Virus record (IMG/VR): IMGVR_UViG_3300046007_007003
Length of the DNA: 20,000 nt
DNA from: an uncultured virus (IMG/VR IMGVR_UViG_3300046007_007003)
Taxonomy: Duplodnaviria; Heunggongvirae; Uroviricota; Caudoviricetes
Strand: one strand, 5' to 3'
Shown one piece after another: positions 1,632-17,876 of this stretch; position 1 is the first letter of the stretch; each line of letters starts with the position of its first letter. A program made the translations under genes and the position numbers. The notes below the pieces were generated by a model. That model was given only the letters and a program-made list of their open reading frames with translations, made no database searches and was not told the DNA's origin.

Positions 1632-3605
1632 TCACCGCCGGAACATGTCCCTCGCGATTGACGACAAAGACGCAACGCCGCCCTCCGAGAAATACGGAAC
1701 ACGAGGCACCATTACAGGCGTCGGCATGAACCCAACACCGCGCGCGAACTGCGAACCGCGAGCCGCGATGTCGTAAAGGTCGGGAAGACCAATCATCCCG
1801 GGTGTGGGAGCCATGAACGGGTTATACGTCTCAGGGGCATAGGCCACAGGCGGAGGTGCAGTGCCGGGCCCGACAGGAGTAGGACCAACCGGAGTGGGGC
1901 CGACAGGCGTCGGACCGACCGGCGTGGGGCCGACCGGAGTAGGACCAACCGGGGTGGGACCAACCGGGGTGGGACCAACCGGAGTGGGACCAACCGGAGT
2001 GGGACCAACCGGAGTGGGACCGACCGGCGTCGGAGTAGGCGTAGGAGTAGGCGTCGGAACGGGCGTAGGAGTAGGCGTCGGAACGGGCGTCGGACGAGGG
2101 GGAGGAACAGGAATAACCTCCGGCGTCGGCGCAGGTACCGGGCGCGGGGGAGGGACGGGGACAGGCTGACGAACAGGGTCCCTTACCGGCGTCGGACGAG
2201 GGGGAGGAACTGGAACAGGCTCCCTTACCGGCGTCGGACGCGGCGGCGGTACAGGGACAGGCTGACGAGCAGGCGCCGCGGGCAGCGCTCCGGGCTCATA
2301 AATGGGCGGGGTAACGACGATAGTACCCGGGCGTGGCGCCGCGGGAAGGGTACCCACCGGAACCTCGGGCCTACCAGCAACGACAGGCGAAGGAGAAGCC
2401 GCAGGAAGACTGCCCACCGGAACGTTGGGCCTACCAGCAACGACAGGCGAAGGAGAAGCCGCAGGAAGACTGCCCACCGGAACGTTGGGCCTACCAGCAA
2501 CGACAGGCGAAGGAGAAGCCGCGGGAAGGGTACCCACCGGAACCTCGGGCCTACCAGCAACGACAGGCGAAGGAGAAGCCGCAGGAAGACTGCCCACCGG
2601 AACGTTGGGCCTACCAGCAACGACAGGCGAAGGAACCTGTGCGTTCTTGATCGTCGAGGGCTTGGGCGTGGTAGTGAACGTCGGCGCAGGAACAGTGATC
2701 GTTCCAAGGTCGATGACCGGGGGAGCCGCAGGAAGAGATCCCACAGGAACGTCGAACCTTCCCGCAGAAACAGGCGACGACACAGACGGAGCCTGCGTAA
2801 ACGACCCAATGCCCGCCTCAAGATCCCCAAGACTCGGAGCAGGACCCGCATCCGTAGACGTCGACGTCTTGAAACGGTCCAAGGCCCTCGTCACAGCGTT
2901 CGATGCCCTGATAGAAGCGTTGAGAATCGGATTGCCCGAGAGCGCCGTTTGAGTCGGCGACAGAGTCGGACCCGCCAAAACGCCAGCGCCTAAAAGATTA
3001 AGAAGCGCGGACCCCGCTCCGCCAACCACGGACGGCGCTGCCGGCAAGTTCGCCGCAACCGACGGAGCAAGAGATGTCACCCCAGCCCGCGCAGCGTTCA
3101 TAATCACAGGAGCCGCAACCGCCAGCGCAGGAACAGCCGCCTCCGCCGTCCCAATCGGGCTCAAAGAAACCCGGCCACCGCCGGGCCCCGGGCCGACGTC
3201 CGCGGGCCCCGCAAATGGCGACGTTGCCTGAATGCTGCCAACAGGACGCATCGGCGGCGTGACAACGGTCGGACGGGCAGGGGATACAGGTGCGGAGACA
3301 GGGGCCCGGTCATCCCGAGCCACGGAAGGGGTGGTCGTTTTTGCAGGGGTGGTCTTGGCGGGGGTGGATGCCGCAGGCTTTGCAGGCGTCGCCTTGGCCG
3401 GAGTCGACGGGGCCCGGTCATCCCGAGCACTAGAGGGGGCCGGGGTGGCCTTCGCTGGGGTGGCCTTCGCTGGGGTGGCCTTCGCTGGGGTGGCCTTCGC
3501 TGGGGTAGATGCGGCGGGTTTCGTAGGCGTGGACTTCGCCGGAGCCGAAGACGAGGACTTCGGCCCAGCCTGCCCTCCAGACTTCGCTATTTCTCTTGGA
3601 GGCAT
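1632..3605 (-). CDS. Pro/Ala/Thr-rich low-complexity repeat protein, 657 aa, probably virion-associated or ejected; function unknown
   Basis: Long ORF coupled to the upstream gene by a TGATG overlap at 3605. Its repeats (PAKAT, PSPVVAGRPNVPVGSLPAAS, PVPVPPPRP, PTPVG) all have unit lengths divisible by 3, and the PTPVG and PVPVPPPRP copies vary at synonymous positions. It ends in FSEGGVASLSSIARDMFRR. Confidence 0.8.
   Translation of the reverse strand: MPPREIAKSGGQAGPKSSSSAPAKSTPTKPAASTPAKATPAKATPAKATPAKATPAPSSARDDRAPSTPAKATPAKPAASTPAKTTPAKTTTPSVARDDRAPVSAPVSPARPTVVTPPMRPVGSIQATSPFAGPADVGPGPGGGRVSLSPIGTAEAAVPALAVAAPVIMNAARAGVTSLAPSVAANLPAAPSVVGGAGSALLNLLGAGVLAGPTLSPTQTALSGNPILNASIRASNAVTRALDRFKTSTSTDAGPAPSLGDLEAGIGSFTQAPSVSSPVSAGRFDVPVGSLPAAPPVIDLGTITVPAPTFTTTPKPSTIKNAQVPSPVVAGRPNVPVGSLPAASPSPVVAGRPEVPVGTLPAASPSPVVAGRPNVPVGSLPAASPSPVVAGRPNVPVGSLPAASPSPVVAGRPEVPVGTLPAAPRPGTIVVTPPIYEPGALPAAPARQPVPVPPPRPTPVREPVPVPPPRPTPVRDPVRQPVPVPPPRPVPAPTPEVIPVPPPRPTPVPTPTPTPVPTPTPTPTPTPVGPTPVGPTPVGPTPVGPTPVGPTPVGPTPVGPTPVGPTPVGPTPVGPTPVGPGTAPPPVAYAPETYNPFMAPTPGMIGLPDLYDIAARGSQFARGVGFMPTPVMVPRVPYFSEGGVASLSSIARDMFRR
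1867..2030. repeat. 15-bp tandem repeat (~11 units) encoding PTPVG
   Basis: Units such as ggaccaaccggagtg / ggccgaccggcgtg, with wobble-position variation. Confidence 0.95.
2341..2634. repeat. 60-bp tandem repeat, ~5 units in an A-B-B-A-B pattern, encoding a 20-aa repeat
   Basis: The lines at 2341 and 2521 are identical (type A). The lines at 2401, 2461 and 2581 are identical (type B; the last is partial). A diverged copy lies near 2725-2780. Confidence 0.97.
3440..3506. repeat. 15-bp tandem repeat encoding PAKAT
   Basis: ggggtggccttcgct x4 exact, with degenerate copies at ~3330-3400. Confidence 0.95.
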
Positions 3606-4594
3606 CAGACAAACCCCTGACGAAGACCAAACGGATCATCCTGCTGACCCAGTGGGGGCAACCCAAACATCGGCGGCGGAAGTGCCCCTTGCTGACCCTG
3701 AGCCATCCCAAACTGCGGGGCACTCGGCATCGGCGAAGGCATGAACGCACCCGCCGCACCAACCGGCTGGATCGGCGTGAACGCAGGATACTGCGTGATC
3801 GGCGGCTGAACAGGCGGCTCTGGCGTAGGCGGCTGAACAGGCTGCTGACCCACAGTGCCAATCACAGGCATGACAGGCGGAGCCGCAGGCAGTTGCAGCG
3901 CCTCGAAAATCTTCGGCAGATACTCGGCAAAGTTCGTAACGCCACGACCCCGCAAGTACTCCATAATCATCGGCTGAAGCGACTGCTGCGTCTGACCCGT
4001 CAGGTCCTTGCCCTCGGCAAACGCACGCGCCAACTCCTCCGCGGACAAAGCCTGCGAAGCCTGCGAAGCCGCCGGTGCCACAACCTCGCTCCGGTCAATG
4101 CCGCGACCCGCATTCTCCGCAGCCATCCGCTCCATCGTCGCGTCCGTCCGCGCAAAGTAGTCGTCAATCTCCGCCTGCGAGTAACCACGCTCCGCAAGAT
4201 TCTCACGCTGAGCGTCACGGTTGGCAAAAGGATTCGCGGAAAAACCCATGCTGACGTCACGAACAATCCCACTGGGAATTGACTTCACCGCCTCAATGAA
4301 GCCCCTACCCGTGTTCGCGGCACTCGAAACGACGTTCCGCGCCCCAGACGAGGCGTTGCTTCCAGAACCACCCGAAGCCGCAGCACTCTTCTGGGCCATG
4401 CTCCTGTCATAAGAACTGTCCGCAAACGAAACCTTCTGAACGCCCTTGCCCTCAATGTTCACAGACTTGCCGTGATACCCAGCCTCCGCTGCCTCCCGCA
4501 AACTTCCAAAAGTAGGCGAACTACTCGACGCCGCCCCACCGTTCCTCAAACGGACAACGCCATAGTCCGCACCAAGACGCCCACGGTCGATCAT
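3605..4594 (-). CDS. Hypothetical virion-region protein, 329 aa, with low-complexity Ser/Gly and Pro/Gln segments
   Basis: ORF between terL and the Pro-rich gene, with the same G/T-ending codon bias as terL. It has a GGGGG purine tract upstream and a TGATG coupling downstream. N-terminal LRNGG motif. Confidence 0.8.
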   Translation of the reverse strand: MIDRGRLGADYGVVRLRNGGAASSSSPTFGSLREAAEAGYHGKSVNIEGKGVQKVSFADSSYDRSMAQKSAAASGGSGSNASSGARNVVSSAANTGRGFIEAVKSIPSGIVRDVSMGFSANPFANRDAQRENLAERGYSQAEIDDYFARTDATMERMAAENAGRGIDRSEVVAPAASQASQALSAEELARAFAEGKDLTGQTQQSLQPMIMEYLRGRGVTNFAEYLPKIFEALQLPAAPPVMPVIGTVGQQPVQPPTPEPPVQPPITQYPAFTPIQPVGAAGAFMPSPMPSAPQFGMAQGQQGALPPPMFGLPPLGQQDDPFGLRQGFV

Positions 4595-4618
4595 CGACTA
4601 CCCCCGCCAACAGCAAGA

Positions 4619-4634
4619 CTGACAAACCTTACAC
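4619..4634 (-). promoter_or_regulatory. Putative late-promoter motif GTGTAAGGTTTGTCAG
   Basis: Near-copy of 1593-1608, in the gap between terL and the 329-aa gene. Confidence 0.55.
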
Positions 4635-4665
4635 CACTTCCGACACACATTCTAGCCGTAGTAAC

Positions 4666-6117
4666 CTACCCATAATACACAACACGCTGCGAAGGCCCCG
4701 CATCCTCCCGACCCCAGTCGTCCGTCGGCAACTGAACAAAATTCCCCTGACGATACCGCATCAACGCCTGCGTCATACTGTCCACATAGTCGTCATGCTC
4801 CCCGTTCGGAAATGCCGCACACTCCTCAATCACCTCGTGCGCCCACTGCTCGTCCGGAGCCCAAATCATCCCAGCCTCAAACAACGGCGCTATACTGTGC
4901 GCCCGGCTGATCTTGTCCTTCCCACGCGACGGCGTAAAATTCACCACAGGTATCCCCATCTGCCTCAACTCATGCGTCAACGGCGTACCCGTCGCCTTCG
5001 CCTCCACAATCACCGTCTCAGGCTCCCAAAACTTGTACTTCTCCCACGCCACACGCTTCAACTCAGGGAAATCCCACCGACCCTTCTCCGCATCCAATAA
5101 CATCAAACTCGGCATCCCAGCCTCGTTCACCTGAAACACACCCCACGTCGTGATCGCAGAATAATCCGCTAACTCAGACTTCGAAAACGCCGTGTCATAA
5201 CTCTGTATCACATACTGCAACTCCGGGACCTTCGATCCCTCCCAAATCTTCCACCACTCACGCTTCAGTATCGCATTCTCCTCACCCGTCGGATTCTGCT
5301 GATACTGCGCATTCCACTTGCTCGGCGGAATCGACGCACGAACCTTCTCTAACTCACCAACAGGCCAATACTCAGGCCAGCAACTCCGCCCACTCGGCAA
5401 AATAGCAGGTAACTCCAAAACCTCCCAAACATCAGCCCGCGGATCACGAGCCTGAGCCTTCAACAACTGACCCGTCAGATCCTTCTCACTCCACCGCGTC
5501 ATCACCACAATAATCGAACCACCCGGCTGCAAACGCTGCCGAGGTCCACCCGTGTACCAGTCCCAAGCATCCTCAAAACCAGAACTGCTCATCGCAGTCT
5601 GTTCTGAATGTGGGTCATCGATGATCACCAAGTCACCACCACGACCCGCCAAGTTCGACCCAACACCAACAGCATAATACATCCCACCACGGTCCGTGTC
5701 CCACCGACCACTCGCCTTACTGTCCGCCGCCAACCGCACATCAAACACGTCCTTGTAATCATCCCGGTCCAGCAAATTCTTGACCTTCCGGCCAAAACCT
5801 ACCGCCAACTCCGTCGTGTGCGTCGCCTGAATGATCTTCATCGACGGGTTCCGACCCATCATCCAAGCCGGAAACAAGTAACTCGCAAACTCACTCTTCG
5901 TGTGCCGCGGGGCCATGTTCACAATCAAACGCTTCAGCTCACCCCTCGCTACACGCTCCAACCTCTCCGCAATCAAACGATGATGCTCGCCAGCAATGAA
6001 CTCAGGCCAAACAGACCTCACAAACGACAGAAAATCACCCTGAGAACGCTCCCTACGCTCCAACTGCGCAAGCCTCAGTTGAAGTTTCAGAAGTCTCTCG
6101 TCACGGCCCTCGGACAT
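4666..6117 (-). CDS. terL: Terminase large subunit (Terminase_6-type ATPase + RNase H-like nuclease)
   Basis: Walker A variant NMAPRHTKS, Walker B LVIIDDPH, motif III VMTRW, QYQQNP, nuclease QSYDTA and FPNGEHDDYVDS. AGGAGG RBS. Confidence 0.97.
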   Translation of the reverse strand: MSEGRDERLLKLQLRLAQLERRERSQGDFLSFVRSVWPEFIAGEHHRLIAERLERVARGELKRLIVNMAPRHTKSEFASYLFPAWMMGRNPSMKIIQATHTTELAVGFGRKVKNLLDRDDYKDVFDVRLAADSKASGRWDTDRGGMYYAVGVGSNLAGRGGDLVIIDDPHSEQTAMSSSGFEDAWDWYTGGPRQRLQPGGSIIVVMTRWSEKDLTGQLLKAQARDPRADVWEVLELPAILPSGRSCWPEYWPVGELEKVRASIPPSKWNAQYQQNPTGEENAILKREWWKIWEGSKVPELQYVIQSYDTAFSKSELADYSAITTWGVFQVNEAGMPSLMLLDAEKGRWDFPELKRVAWEKYKFWEPETVIVEAKATGTPLTHELRQMGIPVVNFTPSRGKDKISRAHSIAPLFEAGMIWAPDEQWAHEVIEECAAFPNGEHDDYVDSMTQALMRYRQGNFVQLPTDDWGREDAGPSQRVVYYG

Positions 6118-6137
6118 CGGGATACCTCCTGTATGCT

Positions 6138-6166
6138 AAGATATACGACTAAACGCTGGCTTACAA
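6138..6166 (-). promoter_or_regulatory. Sigma70-like promoter for terL: TTGTAA-N17-TATCTT, with AT-rich upstream tract
   Basis: On the minus strand, -35 is at 6166-6161 and -10 at 6143-6138, with exact 17-nt spacing, followed by AGGAGG and ATG at 6117. Confidence 0.65.
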
Positions 6167-6211
6167 AAATACAATACCCGGGGGTAGGGGACCCATGAAG
6201 CCCTTCGTACA

Positions 6212-6227
6212 CGTTTCACGTGAAACA
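6212..6227. promoter_or_regulatory. parS: parS-like centromere palindrome CGTTTCACGTGAAACA
   Basis: 15/16 match to the universal chromosomal parS consensus TGTTTCACGTGAAACA, with a perfect 14-bp core GTTTCACGTGAAAC. Intergenic. Confidence 0.8.
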
Positions 6228-6435
6228 TACGACGGATCGCATACCGTTGGTAGAATTTAGGTACCATTTTTATTTTGGAACGTGATTGTTTGTAACGAAC
6301 ATGGCCCAAGCGCCCGTTCGCTCGGCCACCCGGCCGCGCTGCGCGGCTCGCATCGCGCCGTCACCGGCTGCGCGCCGGTAGCCTCTATTGCGGCCGGGGC
6401 CCCGTGCGCCGGGCGGCGCGGGGCGCGCGCCGGGC

Positions 6436-6463
6436 GGGGCGGATCGCGGATCGCGGATCGCGT
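6436..6463. repeat. 7-bp repeat array (ATCGCGG-type) in GC-rich non-coding DNA
   Basis: ggggcgg atcgcgg atcgcgg atcgcgt. Confidence 0.75.
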
Positions 6464-6617
6464 GCCGGTTGCGCCAGGTCGAGATCCTGGCACAACTGCC
6501 GGTTGGGCGCGGCGCGCTCGATCTCGGCACCGGGATCCAGCTGGCCGGGATCCAGCAAGCGAAAGCCCCGCCCGGCGGACCGGACGGGGCGAGGGCAGGC
6601 CAGCGGATCGCGGCGCG

Positions 6618-6791
6618 TCAGGCGGGGCGCGCGGGCTCGAGCAGGCGGGCGGCGCGCGCCTGCGCGATGTAGCTGCGGGCGGCGGCGATGGCCGCGCGCC
6701 GAACGCCCGGGTTGCGGGCGGCGGCGGCGTAGCGGCGACGGGCGGCGGCGCACGAAAGATCGAGCGCGGACCAATATCCAAGCCGGTTCAT
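6618..6791 (-). CDS. Small basic Ala/Arg-rich hypothetical protein, 57 aa (MNRLGYWSALDLSC...)
   Basis: Start re-called at ATG 6791, which forms an ATGA overlap with the stop of the upstream gene. Confidence 0.55.
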   Translation of the reverse strand: MNRLGYWSALDLSCAAARRRYAAAARNPGVRRAAIAAARSYIAQARAARLLEPARPA

Positions 6792-7030
6792 GCCGCGCCC
6801 CCGACGTTGAAGGCCGCCGCCTGACGCGCGGACCAAGGCCCGCGCTCGAGCGCCGCGATCTCGGCCGCGCGCAGCGGATAGGACCGGCCGCTAGCGTCGA
6901 TCCGTTCCCCGTCGACGATATAGGCGAGTGATCCGCCCGGGGCGCGGGGATCCCCGCACCACCACGCGGAAAAGCGGGAGCGTCGGCCGGGGATCCGGAT
7001 GCCGTGATAAACGTGTGTTGCGTTTGCCAT
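6788..7030 (-). CDS. Hypothetical early protein, 80 aa (MANATHVYHGIRIPGRRSRFSAWW...)
   Basis: Start re-called at ATG 7030 with AGGAGA RBS, downstream of leader-repeat copy 1. Confidence 0.7.
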   Translation of the reverse strand: MANATHVYHGIRIPGRRSRFSAWWCGDPRAPGGSLAYIVDGERIDASGRSYPLRAAEIAALERGPWSARQAAAFNVGGAA

Positions 7031-7212: not shown

Positions 7213-7265
7213 GTTGTTTATCACTCGATAAATAAGAGGAGGTTGTTTATCACTCGATAAATAAG
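7213..7265. repeat. Exact 24-bp direct repeat x2 (GTTGTTTATCACTCGATAAATAAG), each containing the palindrome TTTATC-N4-GATAAA; operator-like
   Basis: Copies at 7213-7236 and 7242-7265 (period 29 bp), forming an AT-rich island in very GC-rich DNA. Confidence 0.9.
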
Positions 7266-7273
7266 GGCGCGGC

Positions 7274-7307
7274 AAAGAAAAACCCCGCCCGGCTGAACCG
7301 GACGGGG
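7274..7307 (-). terminator. Rho-independent terminator after the beta-clamp-like gene
   Basis: Minus strand CCCCGTCCGG-TTCAG-CCGGGCGGGG-TTTTTCTTT. Confidence 0.85.
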
Positions 7308-7338
7308 CGCGGCGCGCGGCAAGCTCGAGCGGGGCGCG

Positions 7339-7959
7339 CTACTCGGCAGCCATGCGGGCGGCGGCGCTGGCCTTGCGCGTCATATCCGCGACCATCGATT
7401 TAAGCTCGGCCGGGTCGCGCTTGTCCGCGTTTCGGTATGGCATGCAGAGCCCGAAAATATCGGACCGGCCGTAAAAGGTCACAAGCGCGGGGGAGTGTCC
7501 GCAATGGTGAACCTGCGGCTTGCTGAGCTTGTCGCCGAGCATGACAGCCGCCTTGCGGAAGCCTTCAAGATAGGCGGGGTCGTATTGCGCCAGCGTGCCA
7601 AGCTCGGCCATGTCCGGCATGACGCGGGACCAGTCGGGGAAGCTGCCATCGACGGGGCGGAAGAGGATATCCCCAAGAGTGTAAGCACCGCCGCGCCGGG
7701 CGAGACCGATACCGGGGGCCTTGTGCCCCTTCAAAGCCCGGGCGATAATCTCGGCCGGGATGATAAATTTTTCGCCGGGGATGATTTCGGGCACGCGCGC
7801 GACCATCAGGCGGTGCCCGTCAGTTGCGACAAGGTGCAGGGTCGCGCCGTCAGGCTCGACCGAGACGCCTTGCAGGTAGTAGCGCGTCTCTTCGGTCGAT
7901 ACGGCAAGCGCGACGGCGCGCAGGATATCGCAGGGCAGAGTAACGTCGAAGTCGGACAT
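7339..7959 (-). CDS. Truncated DNA polymerase III beta (sliding clamp)-like protein, 206 aa
   Basis: Start re-called at ATG 7959 (AGGAG RBS). AVSTEETRYYLQGV...LVATDGHRL and VDGSFPDWSRVMP correspond to DnaN central-domain motifs and the linker to domain 3. The N-terminal domain is absent. Confidence 0.82.
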   Translation of the reverse strand: MSDFDVTLPCDILRAVALAVSTEETRYYLQGVSVEPDGATLHLVATDGHRLMVARVPEIIPGEKFIIPAEIIARALKGHKAPGIGLARRGGAYTLGDILFRPVDGSFPDWSRVMPDMAELGTLAQYDPAYLEGFRKAAVMLGDKLSKPQVHHCGHSPALVTFYGRSDIFGLCMPYRNADKRDPAELKSMVADMTRKASAAARMAAE

Positions 7960-7981
7960 TGGCAGGGCTCCTAAAGCAAGC

Positions 7982-8036
7982 GGGGCGGGATTGCCCCGCC
8001 CCGTGTATCGCATACGCTCGGCCGCGAAGGCAAGCG
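7982..8036 (-). promoter_or_regulatory. Early-gene leader repeat copy 2
   Basis: gcaagcg at 8030-8036, N15, tcgcata at 8008-8014, hairpin GGGGCGGGGCAATCCCGCCCC at 7982-8002. Confidence 0.85.
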
Positions 8037-8042
8037 GTAATT

Positions 8043-9236
8043 TTATGCGACCTTATCCAGCATCGCCCCGGCGCGCTTTTCCAGCTCCACCCGGTCGTCC
8101 TGATGCGGGACGTCCCGCGCAACGGCGGTAATCGCCTGCGCGACGTCCCATACTGACGCGACCGGGCGGCCTTCCTCTTCAAGGTGCCGGGCGGCGGCGG
8201 CCTTCGCCATCCGCTGCGAAAGCCCGGCGCGCTTAGTCAGGAAATCGAGCCGATCATCGTCATCCTTGGCGATGATCGCGTCCCGCGCCGCCTTCACCCC
8301 GTCGAGGAATTTTGCGGTCGCACCCTGCGCGAAGGATTGCAGCGCCGGGCGGGCTTCCGCCGCGAAGCGGTCCGGGGCGAATTTTGTATGCCGGATCTTG
8401 ATTTCCTGAAAATTCTCCACGCCCCAGAGGTTGCGGTTCATACAGACGCCGCGGAGATACATTGCCGCAATTCCGGCGGTTTTGCTGCCCGTCTCACTGT
8501 TCCAAGCGTAGAAGCCCCGGAAAACAAGGTCCGGCTCGCCGTTTGCAAGTTTCCCGATCTCGATCGGGTTGCGATCATCGACGAGGAAAACGAAAACGTC
8601 GCGGTCGCTGGCGAAAAGGGTTGTGGTTTCCATGCTAACCGGGATTTCGGGATCATACACGGCCAAGCCGTTGCGGCTGCCAACCATCATGCCCGGCACT
8701 TTCCAGCGGCCTTCGCTGGCATCGACAAGCCGCTTGATCGGCTCAATGATTTCCCAATCGTGGATGCGGCCATAGTCGGGGCCGGTGGCGGCGCGCAACT
8801 CGCCCGGCACGGCCCCCGCTTCGCTGTCGTAGAGCTTCACCAGTTCTTTGCCGCGATTATAGCGCAGGCCCCATTGCAGGCAGTCAGCGGCCAGAGGGGC
8901 CGGGAGGTCGCGCAGGTAGCCCGCCGGAGCACCGGCCAGCGTCGCGACCTGTGAGAAGGACCAGTGCGTCGGGGCCGTCATGTTCTCGGCGCGGTTCTCG
9001 TCGGTGTATTCGATCAGGACGGAGCCGGTCGTCGGGTTGGCCTCGTCGATCTCACCGACCACCTTGATCTTGTGGGTGTTGACGATGCGGCTGTCGAGGC
9101 GGCGCGCGTCGGCTTTCTTGTGCGTCAGCATCGCATCCAACGACAGGAATTTTTCGTCGGCCGGGCGGCTCCACCATTGCGCGGAAACCGCGCCGTTGCC
9201 GATCCCGTGAGCGAAAGCGTTGGTCTGGTAGGTCAT
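8043..9236 (-). CDS. DUF932-family protein, 397 aa
   Basis: Start re-called at ATG 9236 (GGAG RBS). Motifs WWSRPADEKFLSL, PTHWSFSQ..LAGAPAGYLR, LRAATGPDYGRI, FRGFYAWNSETGS, YLRGVCMNRNLWG and IRHTK, as I recall from DUF932 proteins of alphaproteobacterial plasmids, ICEs and phages. Confidence 0.82.
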   Translation of the reverse strand: MTYQTNAFAHGIGNGAVSAQWWSRPADEKFLSLDAMLTHKKADARRLDSRIVNTHKIKVVGEIDEANPTTGSVLIEYTDENRAENMTAPTHWSFSQVATLAGAPAGYLRDLPAPLAADCLQWGLRYNRGKELVKLYDSEAGAVPGELRAATGPDYGRIHDWEIIEPIKRLVDASEGRWKVPGMMVGSRNGLAVYDPEIPVSMETTTLFASDRDVFVFLVDDRNPIEIGKLANGEPDLVFRGFYAWNSETGSKTAGIAAMYLRGVCMNRNLWGVENFQEIKIRHTKFAPDRFAAEARPALQSFAQGATAKFLDGVKAARDAIIAKDDDDRLDFLTKRAGLSQRMAKAAAARHLEEEGRPVASVWDVAQAITAVARDVPHQDDRVELEKRAGAMLDKVA

Positions 9237-9257
9237 GTCACTTGCTCCAAAAGTGAA

Positions 9258-9311
9258 GGGGCGGGATTGCCCCGCCCCCTCTGTCGCATAACCTCGCACA
9301 GTGTGCAAGCG
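9258..9311 (-). promoter_or_regulatory. Early-gene leader repeat copy 3
   Basis: gcaagcg at 9305-9311, N14, tcgcata at 9284-9290, and a hairpin at 9258-9278 identical to copy 2. Confidence 0.85.
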
Positions 9312-10043: not shown

Positions 10044-10072
10044 AAGGTATGCGATCATCCGCGACAGGTCAA
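10044..10072 (-). promoter_or_regulatory. Sigma70-like promoter TTGACC-N17-TACCTT, overlapped by an inverted TATGCGA box
   Basis: -35 at 10072-10067, -10 at 10049-10044. Plus-strand tatgcga at 10048-10054. Confidence 0.72.
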
Positions 10073-10480
10073 GGCCAAAACATCTTCCCATGGCGGCGGC
10101 CACTGCCAGAGGCCGACAGGCTCGACCGCGTCGACCCCGTCCATCCTCAGGGCGACCGCGTCGCGGCCGTGGAAAAGATAGAGCGACCTCGGACGATCCT
10201 TGCCCGCCGACCTCTCGACCAGAACCCAAACGCTCGCGTGCCCGTGCCGGGTCAACCATGCGACCTGATGGGGACTCAGCGCGACCGCCCTCGTGCCGGT
10301 CGTCTTGAGTTCCAGAAAGTGGAACCGGCCCGCCTCGTCACAGAGCAGGACGTCCGGGACGCCCGGCATGGCCCAAGTCTCAATCCTCGTCGTCGTCCAC
10401 TGCGTCGGCATCTTCGATAGTGCCTGCCGGAGGGACGCCCAGAGTTTGCTTTCCGGGGTTTTCGTTGGGCGTGACGTCAA
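10055..10480 (-). CDS. PD-(D/E)xK nuclease (VRR-NUC / Holliday-junction-resolvase-like)
   Basis: ESKLW...RIET...PGVPDVL...FLELK...LSPHQVAW motif pattern. TTG start overlapping the terS 3' end; start position uncertain. Confidence 0.85.
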   Translation of the reverse strand: MTSRPTKTPESKLWASLRQALSKMPTQWTTTRIETWAMPGVPDVLLCDEAGRFHFLELKTTGTRAVALSPHQVAWLTRHGHASVWVLVERSAGKDRPRSLYLFHGRDAVALRMDGVDAVEPVGLWQWPPPWEDVLALTCRG

Positions 10481-11015
10481 TCACCGATCCTCCCAGTTCT
10501 TGAATGGCCCGCAGCACTTCTTCCTTGCTCATCGAGTCGATGCTGCCGTGCCGGATTTCAGATTTGCTGACGTAGATGTTCCCGTGCGCCATGCCGCGCC
10601 GGACCTCGGCCTGCACGGCGGCAGAATACTTTCCATTCGCCAGCGCCTCGTCGCGGATGATCTGCAAGTCGCGCAGGTGCCGCTCGAAGGTGATTCCATA
10701 CATCTCATCGAGCTCAGACCGATATTCCCGAATCTTCTTGGCGATGTTGGGATACAGACGAGGATTCATCATCCTGTGGGCGGATTGGTGCGCCGAGGCG
10801 GGGGCAAAGCCTGCGTTGATCGCGGCCTGTCGGGCCGTGATCTGCCCGTCCTTCGACACAATCTCCTTGACGAAAAGCTCCTGCTTTCTGGTCAGGGCCT
10901 TCGTCACAGGGGCCATCGGCATGTCTTTGGGCCTTTTGGCCCGGTAGGCAACGCTTGAGTCGCGTTTCTGGATCTTCAAGGCAAGCTGCACTTGCTTCTC
11001 GACTTCATCGCTCAT
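10380..11015 (-). CDS. terS: Terminase small subunit, 211 aa
   Basis: Start re-called at ATG 11015 (MSDEVEKQ; a later start is possible). LTRKQELFVKE...ARQAAINAGF...SA...AHRMM..P.IAKKI is an HTH pattern of Terminase_2-type TerS, followed by SAAVQAE..RG and a VIDVTP tail. Confidence 0.82.
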   Translation of the reverse strand: MSDEVEKQVQLALKIQKRDSSVAYRAKRPKDMPMAPVTKALTRKQELFVKEIVSKDGQITARQAAINAGFAPASAHQSAHRMMNPRLYPNIAKKIREYRSELDEMYGITFERHLRDLQIIRDEALANGKYSAAVQAEVRRGMAHGNIYVSKSEIRHGSIDSMSKEEVLRAIQELGGSVIDVTPNENPGKQTLGVPPAGTIEDADAVDDDED

Positions 11016-11058
11016 GGTCTTGTCCCCGCTTATCGCATACGGCTGGAAGGTTCCAAAA

Positions 11059-11359
11059 GGCTCTATGTATATATGGCTGGAAAATCCGAGAGGCTCGAAA
11101 ATTTTTTTGAACCCCCTTAAGGCACTTTTCGTTTTTTGCCCCGCGGCCCCCTTGGACGGCCTTCCCCGGCCTTCCCGGCCCCATTCGGGAGGGGATACAT
11201 CGGTTACATATTTCAAAAACATCACTTAGCTACTTAGTGAAACTACTAACCCTATATATATAAAGGGAAAAACAGTGGTGGTTAACGGAAAAACATCGGT
11301 TACGGTCATTTTCATTTCATTCACCTCGTTAGAGTTTGGCTCCATATATATACAGGGCC
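11059..11359. other. AT-rich non-coding region with inverted and direct repeats; candidate replication origin or packaging site
   Basis: Imperfect 18-bp inverted repeats at 11059-11076 and 11342-11359 (15/18). ACATCGGTTAC x2 at 11197-11207 and 11293-11303. CCCTATATATATAAAGGG near-palindrome at 11250-11267. Confidence 0.55.
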
Positions 11360-13715: not shown

Positions 13716-13915
13716 GACTTCCCCTCCAGCGCCGCGATCCGATCACGTAACTCCTTGAACAGCCGGAACTGCCGCAGCCAGTTCCTGTTTCCAGCAAGCG
13801 GGCTCGTGTCGAAACCCAACTCGCGCATCAACTCCACGCGCTCGGCTTCCTCTTCCGCAGTCAACGGCGTCTCGACAAACGCCAAGCGCGGCTTTGGGTC
13901 TTTCTTCTTTGTCAT
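13712..13915 (-). CDS. Hypothetical protein, 67 aa
   Basis: ORF track entry, GAGG RBS, 4-nt overlaps with both neighbours. Confidence 0.72.
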   Translation of the reverse strand: MTKKKDPKPRLAFVETPLTAEEEAERVELMRELGFDTSPLAGNRNWLRQFRLFKELRDRIAALEGKS

Positions 13916-14163
13916 TTCATCGGCCTCATCGGTGGCACCGGCACGGGAACGTAGCGCGGTTTCAGGTTGTCAGGTCTCGGCGGCGGCACGGGCACAGGCT
14001 CGTGCAGCACCACATTCTCACAGCGAACCACAGCGCCGGGGTCATCCTCGGCGATCAGGTCCTGCATCGCTCGGCAGTGCGCCGGGTCAGCGTACATCCC
14101 AACGTACCCGCTCCACATCGGAGACAGCGTCACGCTGAGAACAGTCACAGTCAGTAAGGACAA
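13912..14163 (-). CDS. Small protein with hydrophobic N-terminus and PVPVPPPRP tail, 83 aa
   Basis: Start re-called at TTG 14163 after GGGAGGGGAG. Confidence 0.6.
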   Translation of the reverse strand: MSLLTVTVLSVTLSPMWSGYVGMYADPAHCRAMQDLIAEDDPGAVVRCENVVLHEPVPVPPPRPDNLKPRYVPVPVPPMRPMK

Positions 14164-14303
14164 TCTTCTCCCCTCCCATAGGCCGCCTTCGACGGCTCTC
14201 GCTTCGGTTGCTTCGGTGATTGTACCACGGGCCTCGGAGCTAGGGCCTGCGCCCGCAGCTCCTGCTCCAGCCACTTGGGCAGCGGCTCCTCATGCGTCGC
14301 CAT
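14151..14303 (-). CDS. Hypothetical protein, 50 aa (MATHEEPLPKWLEQELRAQ...EDCPY)
   Basis: My translation. AGGAGG upstream; fills the gap between neighbours. Confidence 0.6.
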   Translation of the reverse strand: MATHEEPLPKWLEQELRAQALAPRPVVQSPKQPKREPSKAAYGRGEDCPY

Positions 14304-14457
14304 CTTCACTCGCCTCCTTCCGTCTGGCGTCGAGGTGTTCAGCTACCCACCACGCCCAGAACGACACGGCCTCCGCGTCTTCGTCGGGTTTTTCAAAATC
14401 GAAGTGACGAAGAAGTTCTTTCATCGCTGCGATTGCTGCTTTTTCTTTGAACGTCAT
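14290..14457 (-). CDS. Hypothetical protein, 55 aa (MTFKEKAAIAAMKELL...AWWVAEHLDARRK)
   Basis: My translation. GGAG RBS; starts 1 nt after the upstream stop. Confidence 0.65.
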   Translation of the reverse strand: MTFKEKAAIAAMKELLRHFDFEKPDEDAEAVSFWAWWVAEHLDARRKEASEDGDA

Positions 14458-15753: not shown

Positions 15754-16849
15754 CTATCCTTTCATGTTGAACTTGATGACCTGACCGAACGGCGCATGGC
15801 GCAGGCCGCACGACACCCAGAGGACGGGGTAGTCGGGCGCATCTTTTGGGAAGTCGTTGATCTCAAGGTCGGTGAAGCTGATGAAGTGATCGACCTCGAT
15901 CTGATTGTCTTCGATGTAGTCAAACACCGGCCTGACGAGGGTGCCGCCCCGGCCCTTGGCGTTGAGCATGGTGATCGGTTCGCCCTCTTCGTATCGGGTG
16001 ACCGACTGGATCGAGTAGTCGCAGGCGATGACTGTGATGCTGGCGGGGCGCAGTTCCTCTGCCAGTGCGTTCATGGCACCGAGAAAGTAGGTCAGTGCCT
16101 TGTCGCTCACCGAGCCGCTGGTGTCGTTGTGGATGACGATGTGCCCGACACCCTTGCGGTCTGAGGTGGGGGCGATGATCCGGCTGAGGTGATACATCTT
16201 CCGGTTGGGTCGACGCATACTGTAGTCGTCTGGCTGGTCGCCTGTGAGGTGGCGACGGATCGCATCCTCGAAGTTTATCTCGGGGTCTTGCATCTCGCGG
16301 ATCATTTCATACGCCCACCCCGGCAGCTTGCCGCGACCCTTGGCTATTGCCGACGCCATGATCACGCGCTGCTGGACCTTGATTTCCTCTTGCTTCTTCT
16401 CCTCTTCGGACATCTCAGGCTCGAACACCAAGCCCCATGCTGGGGGGGGCTATGTCGTCCGGCAGGAGATCGTAGATTTTCTCTGCCGAGTATTCCGCGA
16501 ACAGCGGCATATCGATGCCGCCATCCGGCAATTCGAAACCATCCGCCTTCAGGATGTTGTTGATCGCCGCATCGCAGGCGATGTTCCACTTGTCGTGGTT
16601 GCGGTTGCCCTTGCGGAGATGATGTCGCAGGGCGATGTGCAGAACCTCGTGCGCGATGAGGCCGAGGGTCTTCGGCTCTGTCAGGGTGTCGATGAAGGGA
16701 CCGGACCACTTGATCCAGTCGCCATTCGTTGCTGCTGTCCCCATGGTGTCGTCGCGGCTAACGTCGGAGCCCATCGCGAGCGAACCATAGAAGGGGTGAT
16801 GCAGGACGAGCCGGGTCATAGCCCGGCTGACCTTGAGTTCTGGTGTCAT
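15754..16849 (-). pseudogene. DUF2201-type HExxH metallopeptidase + vWA domain gene, split by a 1-nt frameshift in a C8 run (16442-16449)
   Basis: The N part (ATG 16849 to stop 16415) has PFYG, TAATNG, AHEVLH, WNIACDAAIN and SAEKIY. The C part (to 15754) has RRPNR, the MIDAS motif DTSGS, GRGGT..PVF, FTDL and PVLWV. Deleting one C gives ...DIAPPAWGLVFEPEM... and a single 364-aa ORF. It could be an intact gene with a sequencing error. Confidence 0.82.
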
Positions 16850-16856
16850 GTTGCCC

Positions 16857-17876
16857 TCAGAGTACGAGTTTTGAACCATCGTGCAGCGCCCACTCGCGGA
16901 CGGCTGCATTCTTCTTGAGGCTGGGATCACGGGACCATGCGTCCTTGATCGTGAACGCTGCCAGTTCGCGGTTGGGCAGTCGCTTGAGGTAGGCGATGAT
17001 CTTCGAGACGTTCCTGTCTGTCGCTCGGTTCGAGAGGGAAGCACACAGGGCATACCGGATCGCGGAACTGGTCGGGATGGGCGCTTTGTCCGGGTCTGCG
17101 ATGACCATGTCAGGGTCTGGGCATTCCTTGGCGTTCTCAAGGTAGCCCATGAAATCGATGGCAGCAGGCTCGCCGATCTGGCCCATCAGTGCCTGCATCG
17201 ATGCCTTCGGCGACATGCCGAGGTTGATGATCACCGACGCGCGCTGCCATGAGCGGGGCGAGGGGCACGAGTCAACGTCCCGGTCGAACTTGTGCAGGAA
17301 CTCAGGGCGGAAGCGCAGGAAGGAGCGGATGCGGGTGTCCACACCGACCATCGAGAAGTAGGCGATGGTGTCTTCGAGGTCGGCCTCGACCGGAACGAAG
17401 GTCAGTCGGTCGCGCAGATGGGTGGGCATGGTGTTGGCACCGGCACGATCCGATGTGCGGTTGCCAGCGGTCACGACAACCCAGCCATCCGGCAGGTAGT
17501 GGGGTCCGACGCGCCGCTCGTTGACGATCTGGGCGGCGATGTTCTGGCAGGGGACGGGGCCTTGCACCAGTTCATCGATGAACAGGACACCCTTGCCCTC
17601 GCTCGGCATCCAGTCGGGGCGCATCCGCTGCATGGTCGTGCCATCAGCAGACGGCACAGGCCAGCCGCCGAGTTCGCCGGGGTCATACTGTGCAAGCGAC
17701 AGGACCGAACAGTCGATGCCCATGTCCTTGCAGATATCCTTGACGATGGTCGTCTTGCCGAGGCCCGGACCACCGACGAGGTAGGGCACCACGTTCTGGG
17801 CGTCACGCCCGGAGGTGTTGGACATGTTCCACTTGATCGATGCCTCGACGATCTCGCGAGCGACTGACAGTTTCAT
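16857..17876 (-). CDS. MoxR-family AAA+ ATPase
   Basis: Walker A GGPGLGKT, Walker B VLFIDE, TAGNR, Arg finger LRDR, sensor-2 PSPRSW. Adjacent to a vWA gene. Confidence 0.92.
   Translation of the reverse strand: MKLSVAREIVEASIKWNMSNTSGRDAQNVVPYLVGGPGLGKTTIVKDICKDMGIDCSVLSLAQYDPGELGGWPVPSADGTTMQRMRPDWMPSEGKGVLFIDELVQGPVPCQNIAAQIVNERRVGPHYLPDGWVVVTAGNRTSDRAGANTMPTHLRDRLTFVPVEADLEDTIAYFSMVGVDTRIRSFLRFRPEFLHKFDRDVDSCPSPRSWQRASVIINLGMSPKASMQALMGQIGEPAAIDFMGYLENAKECPDPDMVIADPDKAPIPTSSAIRYALCASLSNRATDRNVSKIIAYLKRLPNRELAAFTIKDAWSRDPSLKKNAAVREWALHDGSKLVL

Follow-up and report, generated by a model that had tools for sequence, protein, structure and literature searches.

A chromosomal-type parS site upstream of terL in an HTVC023P-type phage: a predicted loading site for host ParB

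The sequence CGTTTCACGTGAAACA, which lies upstream of the terminase large subunit gene (terL) of an uncultured HTVC023P-type phage, is by sequence comparison a chromosomal-type parS under selection, in a phage without detectable partition proteins. We propose, with a probability of roughly 0.55 for the statement as a whole, that host ParB would load at this site and make the phage DNA a cargo of the host's ParA, SMC and pole-tether machinery. The window is the whole 20,000-nucleotide stretch of DNA that was analysed, and G000 is the 66,335-base record that contains it, which is rated complete but linear.

The site and the genome that carries it

The letters to which the sequence-only reading had drawn attention at 6212–6227 are confirmed, and 94 bases (it gave about 95) separate them from the terL ATG at 6117. 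They match TGTTTCACGTGAAACA in 15 of 16 positions, contain a perfect 14-bp palindrome (6213–6226) and fit t/cGTTt/cCACGTGAAAca, the consensus given for Caulobacter in the available text of PMC7022226, which may not be that of this phage's host; on this fit the earlier identification as a host-type chromosomal parS stands. The 14-mer is the sole site at two or fewer mismatches in G000, where an order-2 Markov model predicts 0.0002 exact copies, and shuffles of the window gave 0.05 matches to the 16-mer at three or fewer mismatches. The site lies beside the packaging genes of a phage genome and not on a chromosome near oriC or parAB. DNA from four other studies was compared over the region, and one contig covers 5881–6265 without any difference. 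A separate argument, that CACGTG is kept here despite avoidance of that hexamer, was rejected (2 seen versus 5.2 expected, with 14 palindromes more depleted).

G000 encodes PolA, UvrD, primase, GroES, portal and capsid, and its kinship with the HTVC023P-type group is seen in TerL (63.5% identity to Pelagibacter phage HTVC027P and 56.6% to HTVC023P, that is, 57–64%), capsid (70%), PolA (46–50% in the best segment) and the presence of Cpn10. The absence of parA and parB that had been remarked on for the window extends to the whole 66-kb genome, and the suggested search for these genes and an integrase found none, as follows: ParA, ParB and recombinase families match 0 of the 84 ORFs (Pfam), six-frame searches for ParB_N (PF02195) and tyrosine integrase (PF00589) gave nothing, and tblastn with host ParA and ParB against the phage genome was empty. 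G000 thus has neither the phage-encoded ParA and ParB of a phage-plasmid ParABS system nor the tyrosine or serine integrase of a temperate phage. A DUF932 gene, whose 39% relative is named "integrase" on one GenBank record, has no profile support for that name. The group is described as lytic (available text of 10.1101/2019.12.14.876532) and G000 has no plasmid-maintenance genes, which leaves the plasmid-like state that had been considered without support.

The sequencing runs that hold this DNA come from lakes, wetlands and other fresh water. A host search found one terL relative (77%, in the site-less clade described below) inside a Rhodobacteraceae MAG, and weak matches to Roseobacter, Erythrobacter and cyanophage records that give no firm host. 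The first 466 bases of G000 (4–466) recur at 93% at G000 60191–60653 (window 13856–14318), so the repeat may be a duplication or come from a strain-chimeric assembly, and the record may have a small gap.

Table 1. Positions of the features discussed (window coordinates)
Feature	Position	Strand	Basis or remark
terL, terminase large subunit, HTVC023P-type	4666..6117	-	phrog_38, E 1e-109; 63.5% to HTVC027P TerL
Candidate terL promoter TTGTAA-17-TATCTT, weak	6138..6166	-	8/12 to sigma-70 consensus
GGGTCCC, the GGG(A/T/G)CCC motif of the clade's terL leader	6188..6194	-	in most relatives with and without parS
Host-type parS, predicted loading site for host ParB	6212..6227	.	Caulobacter consensus fit; 14-bp perfect palindrome 6213-6226
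TATGCGA/TCGCATA box, frequent in the clade's terL leaders	6237..6243	-	17 copies in genome
Conserved leader motif, CATGTT..C.CAAA type	6285..6307	-	candidate part of pac or origin region
Conserved leader motif GGGGCCCC...AATAGAGGCTA	6379..6403	-	comparison with relatives
Small nuclease-like gene next to terS, lacking the site in this phage	10055..10480	-	homologue holds parS in HTVC027P and kin
terS, terminase small subunit	10380..11225	-	phrog_51, PF03592

Recurrence of the site among terL relatives

In the best 80 of 332 terL relatives in IMG/VR, GTTYCAYRTGRAAC is present in 28 terL loci (33 sites in 678 kb; 25 of 77 loci without the three that are near-copies of the window), counts that overstate the number of independent cases because the loci are related. 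By comparison, only six of 1,259 permuted palindromes reach five loci, all six overlapping the parS pattern, and the others reach at most three. The variants found match those of bacterial parS (T/C at position 5 and A/G at position 12). In 20 of the 28 loci the site is in the terL leader, ~10 to 240 bases from the start and single or paired, between motifs common to site-less relatives and with flanks that vary by lineage; in the other eight it is only inside ORFs, downstream of terL. The scan of relatives that had been suggested therefore bears out the recurrence of parS but not a fixed position near terL.

No site was found in 52 of the 80 loci, although many of these are short contigs; L075, for example, has none nearby and one 8 kb off in its genome. 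Whole records have the site in 20 of 50 cases (two of the 50 were selected for having one), as do three of the six IMG/VR records that are at least 90% complete, and among cultured kin HTVC027P has it and HTVC023P, DSL-LC04 and MinM2 do not. On a quick TerL tree (82 rows, with L005 and L010 left out) presence is clustered and needs eight presence/absence changes, at least five of them forced by strong branches. A well-supported clade of 33 rows on that tree is entirely without the site; its three complete records have none within two mismatches of the 16-mer, and no substitute shared palindrome is apparent in the clade among perfect palindromes of at least 14 bases. The parS is dispensable, as this clade and HTVC023P do without it, and it is likely an accessory advantage that is not essential for lytic growth.

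Where present, the site stays near the packaging genes: all five near-complete site-bearing genomes have it within −4.1 to +8.2 kb of the terL start, and in a sample collected by the site first, 11 of 13 matches to this clade fall in the terS-terL-portal block.

Codon choice where the site lies inside genes

Is the DNA of the site itself what is kept? In a structural-region ORF downstream of terL, 15 loci (13 distinct; L381 was dropped as a duplicate of L024) read VSRET, VPRET or VPRGT at the site. The first four site codons are without synonymous change, and the only amino-acid replacements, S/P and E/G, correspond precisely to the T/C and A/G alternatives that parS allows. Synonymous variation is seen, by contrast, in 19 of the 20 codon columns that flank the site, a figure raised on the upstream side by three rows that are misaligned by one codon. 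In HTVC027P the site is inside the small nuclease gene beside terS (MN698241, 16412–16427). Of 71 homologues of this nuclease 68 are readable; 30 have a peptide that permits the site, and 23 of the 30 contain it. A third-position G is used in the Ala/Ser codon of 28 of the 30 site-permitting genes and of 10 of 38 others, Val is GTG in 20 of 26 versus 1 of 11, and GCG is used for only 1 of 107 Ala codons elsewhere in the nuclease genes. The rows for both genes are related, so these counts are not independent, but the two genes and the leader agree. The variable leader distances and the coding copies with fixed codons indicate that the DNA itself is under selection and that its placement is free to vary. 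This agrees with a ParB loading site and speaks against a promoter gate dedicated to terL.

The terL leader and possible control of terL

A −35 box of terL had been placed 45 bp from the site. The distance to TTGTAA is 45 bases (6166–6138), but the promoter is weak, and since it matches eight of 12 consensus letters and lies below the cut-off of a sigma-70 scan that found 0 promoters above threshold, it is a candidate only; its TATCTT occurs also in the leaders of L009 and L011. The TATGCGA box 9 bp from the site is present as described, on the minus strand. The sequence-only reading suggested that ParB might gate late terL transcription here. Repression or delay of the late terL operon by host ParB could account for the 20 site-bearing leaders, and it has a precedent in P. 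aeruginosa, where ParB represses genes beside intergenic parS (available text of PMC7022226). The leader of L006, in which the site abuts a 10/12 promoter match, and that of L007, in which the site fills the 17-base spacer after TTGACA, fit such a role. The position relative to the promoter is nevertheless lineage-dependent (here the site is 45 bases upstream), eight loci and HTVC027P have the site in coding sequence, and site-less relatives retain the same leader motifs. Given the varying distance and the coding copies, gating is unsupported as a general function; we consider it improbable as the explanation of the site, and at most a secondary use in some lineages.

The site had also been placed at an abrupt boundary of composition. 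There is a step nearby, from a GC content of 0.44 over 6118–6300 to 0.79 over 6301–6800, but it begins at ~6300, just past the 6285–6307 motif, and not at the site, and site-less relatives show the same change of skew where terL starts; neither is thus part of the site, and we rejected the boundary as a property of parS. The clade-wide leader motifs (GGGNCCC, AAT.GAGGCTA and CATGTT..C.CAAA) are kept with or without parS and adjoin the 79% GC stretch. Many contigs end there, and the motifs and GC-rich stretch together are a candidate pac or origin region. In this analysis of genome ends, which is based on contigs, ends fall within 600 bases upstream of terL in 29 of 80 loci and downstream in 10; a pac site is not established from them, as the ends scatter and contigs from four other studies break into strain variants there.

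What would bind the site

The 14-mer is a common bacterial sequence: GTTYCACGTGRAAC is present in 266 of 301 Pseudomonadota genomes, most often twice, versus 10 for a reversed control, and in chromosome G107 two copies of the same 14-mer flank mnmG, next to rsmG-parA-parB. In HTCC1062, on which HTVC027P grows, parA (SAR11_0353) adjoins a chromosome-partitioning gene (SAR11_0354), and smc is also present (available text of PMC12753301). On the phage side, a ParB domain was found in 0 of 27 related records.

Viral copies are also numerous: the exact core is present in an estimated ~8,400 viral stretches, and a centre-swapped control in ~190. We sampled 132 viral loci (flanks of 2 kb for 80 and of 300 bases for 52) and, in a search run with a positive control, none had mnmE, mnmG, rsmG, parA or parB near the site. 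Such figures bear on the possibility that the site is a chance palindrome or a functionless fragment carried along from a host. More than half of the relatives lack the site, as that explanation would allow, but it conflicts with the abundance of viral copies and the missing chromosomal neighbours, with the very low expectation per genome and with the codon constraint in two genes. It is largely refuted by the codon data, and we regard it as extremely unlikely.

The 124 flanking ORFs from these viral loci, most of which have no family at a strict cut-off, point to phi29-like phages, to Microviridae (three cases) and to several unrelated neighbourhoods of terminase genes. Could a phage protein, TerS or a small regulator, read the sequence as an operator or packaging signal? 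Sites crowd around the packaging genes here, the site-first sample shows them close to terminase genes in further phage groups too, and many phage ORFs are without a family. Against this, no ParB-like protein was found, TerS is encoded by site-bearing and site-less genomes alike, and no G000 gene follows the site among the near-complete genomes, present with it and absent without it. The same sequence in the unrelated phi29-like phages and Microviridae points instead to a shared host factor, and a phage-encoded reader seems to us very unlikely.

We compared two 30-base parS queries with 50,697 cultured-phage records; they match 338 and 491 of these, versus 63 for a palindrome of the same composition from the window; BLAST detects only those sites with a few matching flank letters. 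The ten most frequent names include Listeria, Clostridium, Microbacterium, Bacillus, Arthrobacter and Gordonia, and any name beyond the top ten accounts for at most 9 and 15 records with the two queries. Escherichia, Klebsiella and Salmonella, though abundant in the collection, are neither in the top ten names nor among the 100 matches listed; Enterobacteriaceae are without par genes (available text of PMC7022226). Judged by these matches, the site is common in cultured phages whose hosts use ParB and rare in enterobacterial phages. A site that is shared by unrelated phages and follows host parABS points to host ParB, and we think it very probable that host ParB is the binder.

Several individual cases were also recorded. 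Phages of the non-sporulating Listeria, Microbacterium, Gordonia, Arthrobacter, Pseudomonas, Ruegeria and Enterococcus have parS-like sites, some in terminal repeats; examples are Ruegeria phage vB_RpoS-V10 and a phage of Microbacterium foliorum. In three Microviridae the exact core is intergenic, by capsid and Rep genes (L095:868, L100:2001 and L141:1967); these are tiny phages that encode no ParB. In the phage collection 19 records named Microviridae match, and "bajarodino virus 6" does so in 12 places.

How host ParB might be used

With CTP, ParB is loaded at parS, from which it spreads; it engages ParA and loads SMC, and in Alphaproteobacteria it binds PopZ and MipZ. Host ParB-CTP clamps would load at the phage parS and spread, so that a phage genome with one site might be treated like an origin region. 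ParA could then position or separate phage genome copies over the prolonged latent period of infection in a host that grows slowly (about 18 h for HTVC027P), and phage genomes might enter a daughter cell when host division precedes lysis. The available text of the literature on the HTVC023P-type group does not report such carry-over.

The closest rival is that the tens of phage parS copies present after replication act as a decoy that draws off ParB, with MipZ or SMC loading, and so stalls host segregation and division to give a larger undivided cell in which phage is produced. Most sampled Pseudomonadota have only about two sites, so one per phage genome would be enough, and no fixed position would be needed; Caulobacter and Hyphomonas cannot do without ParB, which is linked there to positioning of the Z ring (available text of PMC7022226), and the multicopy parS mimics of SGI1 both self-stabilise and expel the helper plasmid (available text of PMC10954446). 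More copies should pay, however, yet the genomes hold one or two. We judge a decoy role unlikely as the primary function, but it is not exclusive of use of the phage DNA as cargo: rising phage copies would come to outnumber the host's few sites, and titration may be the same mechanism seen later in infection.

The cargo proposal has its own difficulty. Simple segregation does not need the crowding of sites in the packaging block, and this counts against our best explanation. The crowding may reflect nearness to the packaged DNA end, which the pile-up of contig ends upstream of terL would fit, although strain variation also explains that pile-up.

Comparison with known systems

The phage-plasmids P1, N15 and mycobacteriophage RedRock have their own parABS. 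Like them, the present phage has a centromere on its genome, but they encode ParA and ParB and use their own parS type, whereas G000 encodes neither protein. The cultured kin of G000 infect Pelagibacter, which, unlike the Bacillus hosts of phi29, does not sporulate. The Bacillus phages phi29 and Nf use parS sites through host Spo0J (PMC2731898); according to the available text of that source phi29 is, like the present phage, a lytic phage with host-type parS in cis, no phage ParB and host ParB as the proposed binder, but it has five sites and the outcome is prespore entrapment, as compared with one site and predicted binding in an HTVC023P-type phage. SGI1, whose parS mimics hijack the IncC plasmid ParABS, is likewise a mobile element that borrows another replicon's ParB through cis sites alone (as predicted here), and in it self-stabilisation and competition go together; it is an integrative element that targets a plasmid system, while here a lytic phage would target that of the host chromosome (available text of PMC10954446). 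The chromosomal parS of Caulobacter and Hyphomonas is the same 16-mer with the same tolerated variants and works in intergenic or coding DNA, both of which hold phage sites (available text of PMC7022226). The phage site differs in having no linked parAB operon and in lying by packaging genes instead of mnmG/oriC.

The sequence-only reading described a cis-only hijack of host partitioning. With a host-type parS and no phage ParA, ParB or integrase this remains the best reading, but it is not unprecedented, since phi29 with Spo0J and SGI1 precede it; what is new is the non-sporulating hosts and a testable cultured pair. The literature, of which few subscription papers were covered, yielded no report of parS for HTVC023P-type phages or for lytic phages whose hosts do not sporulate, nor a survey of lytic phages for host-type parS, and the available main text of two descriptions of the group (10.1101/2019.12.14.876532; PMC9599517) mentions neither parS nor ParB.

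A broader and more doubtful conjecture is that lytic phages whose hosts do not form spores (HTVC023P-type pelagiphages, actinophages and even Microviridae) commonly borrow host ParB by means of one cis site, a strategy not yet described, in which the packaging-block bias would put the site near the virion DNA end, so that ParB and ParA might grip the entering genome or tether concatemers for packaging and the infection might persist through division. Phages of the HTVC023P type belong to the most abundant marine phages. Should they use host ParB, a site of 16 bases would provide a strictly lytic phage with positioning, with inheritance when the host divides or with an arrest of division, and no protein would have to be made for it; this would bear on the persistence of infections in slow-growing hosts. 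HTVC027P (with the site) and HTVC023P (without) share one host strain, so a direct test is possible. The site might further help to indicate the host of a phage, given the difference between phages of ParB-using hosts, in which it is common, and enterobacterial phages, in which it is rare.

Other features of the window and its relatives

Between terL and portal (window 1632–3605) lies a gene for a 657-aa Pro/Ala/Thr-rich protein with PTPVG repeats, strong AT skew and no family. Early genes encode a beta-clamp-like protein (central domain only; 7339–8013) and a DUF932 protein (8043–9308), and repeated intergenic elements, with CCGCCCC...TCGCATA boxes and similar terminator-like hairpins, precede early genes (7071, 8008, 9284, ~6550–6600 and ~7270–7320). 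A perfect 24-base direct repeat is present at 7213–7236 and 7242–7265. At 15754–17876 a MoxR-type AAA ATPase gene is followed by a DUF2201 metallopeptidase/VWA gene, the latter split into ORFs 16415–17140 and 15754–16431. The PolA gene (G000 2732–5479) contains an intein, and the 817-aa TerL of L009 (4786–7236) has a large in-frame insertion, probably an intein, that hid the terL start.
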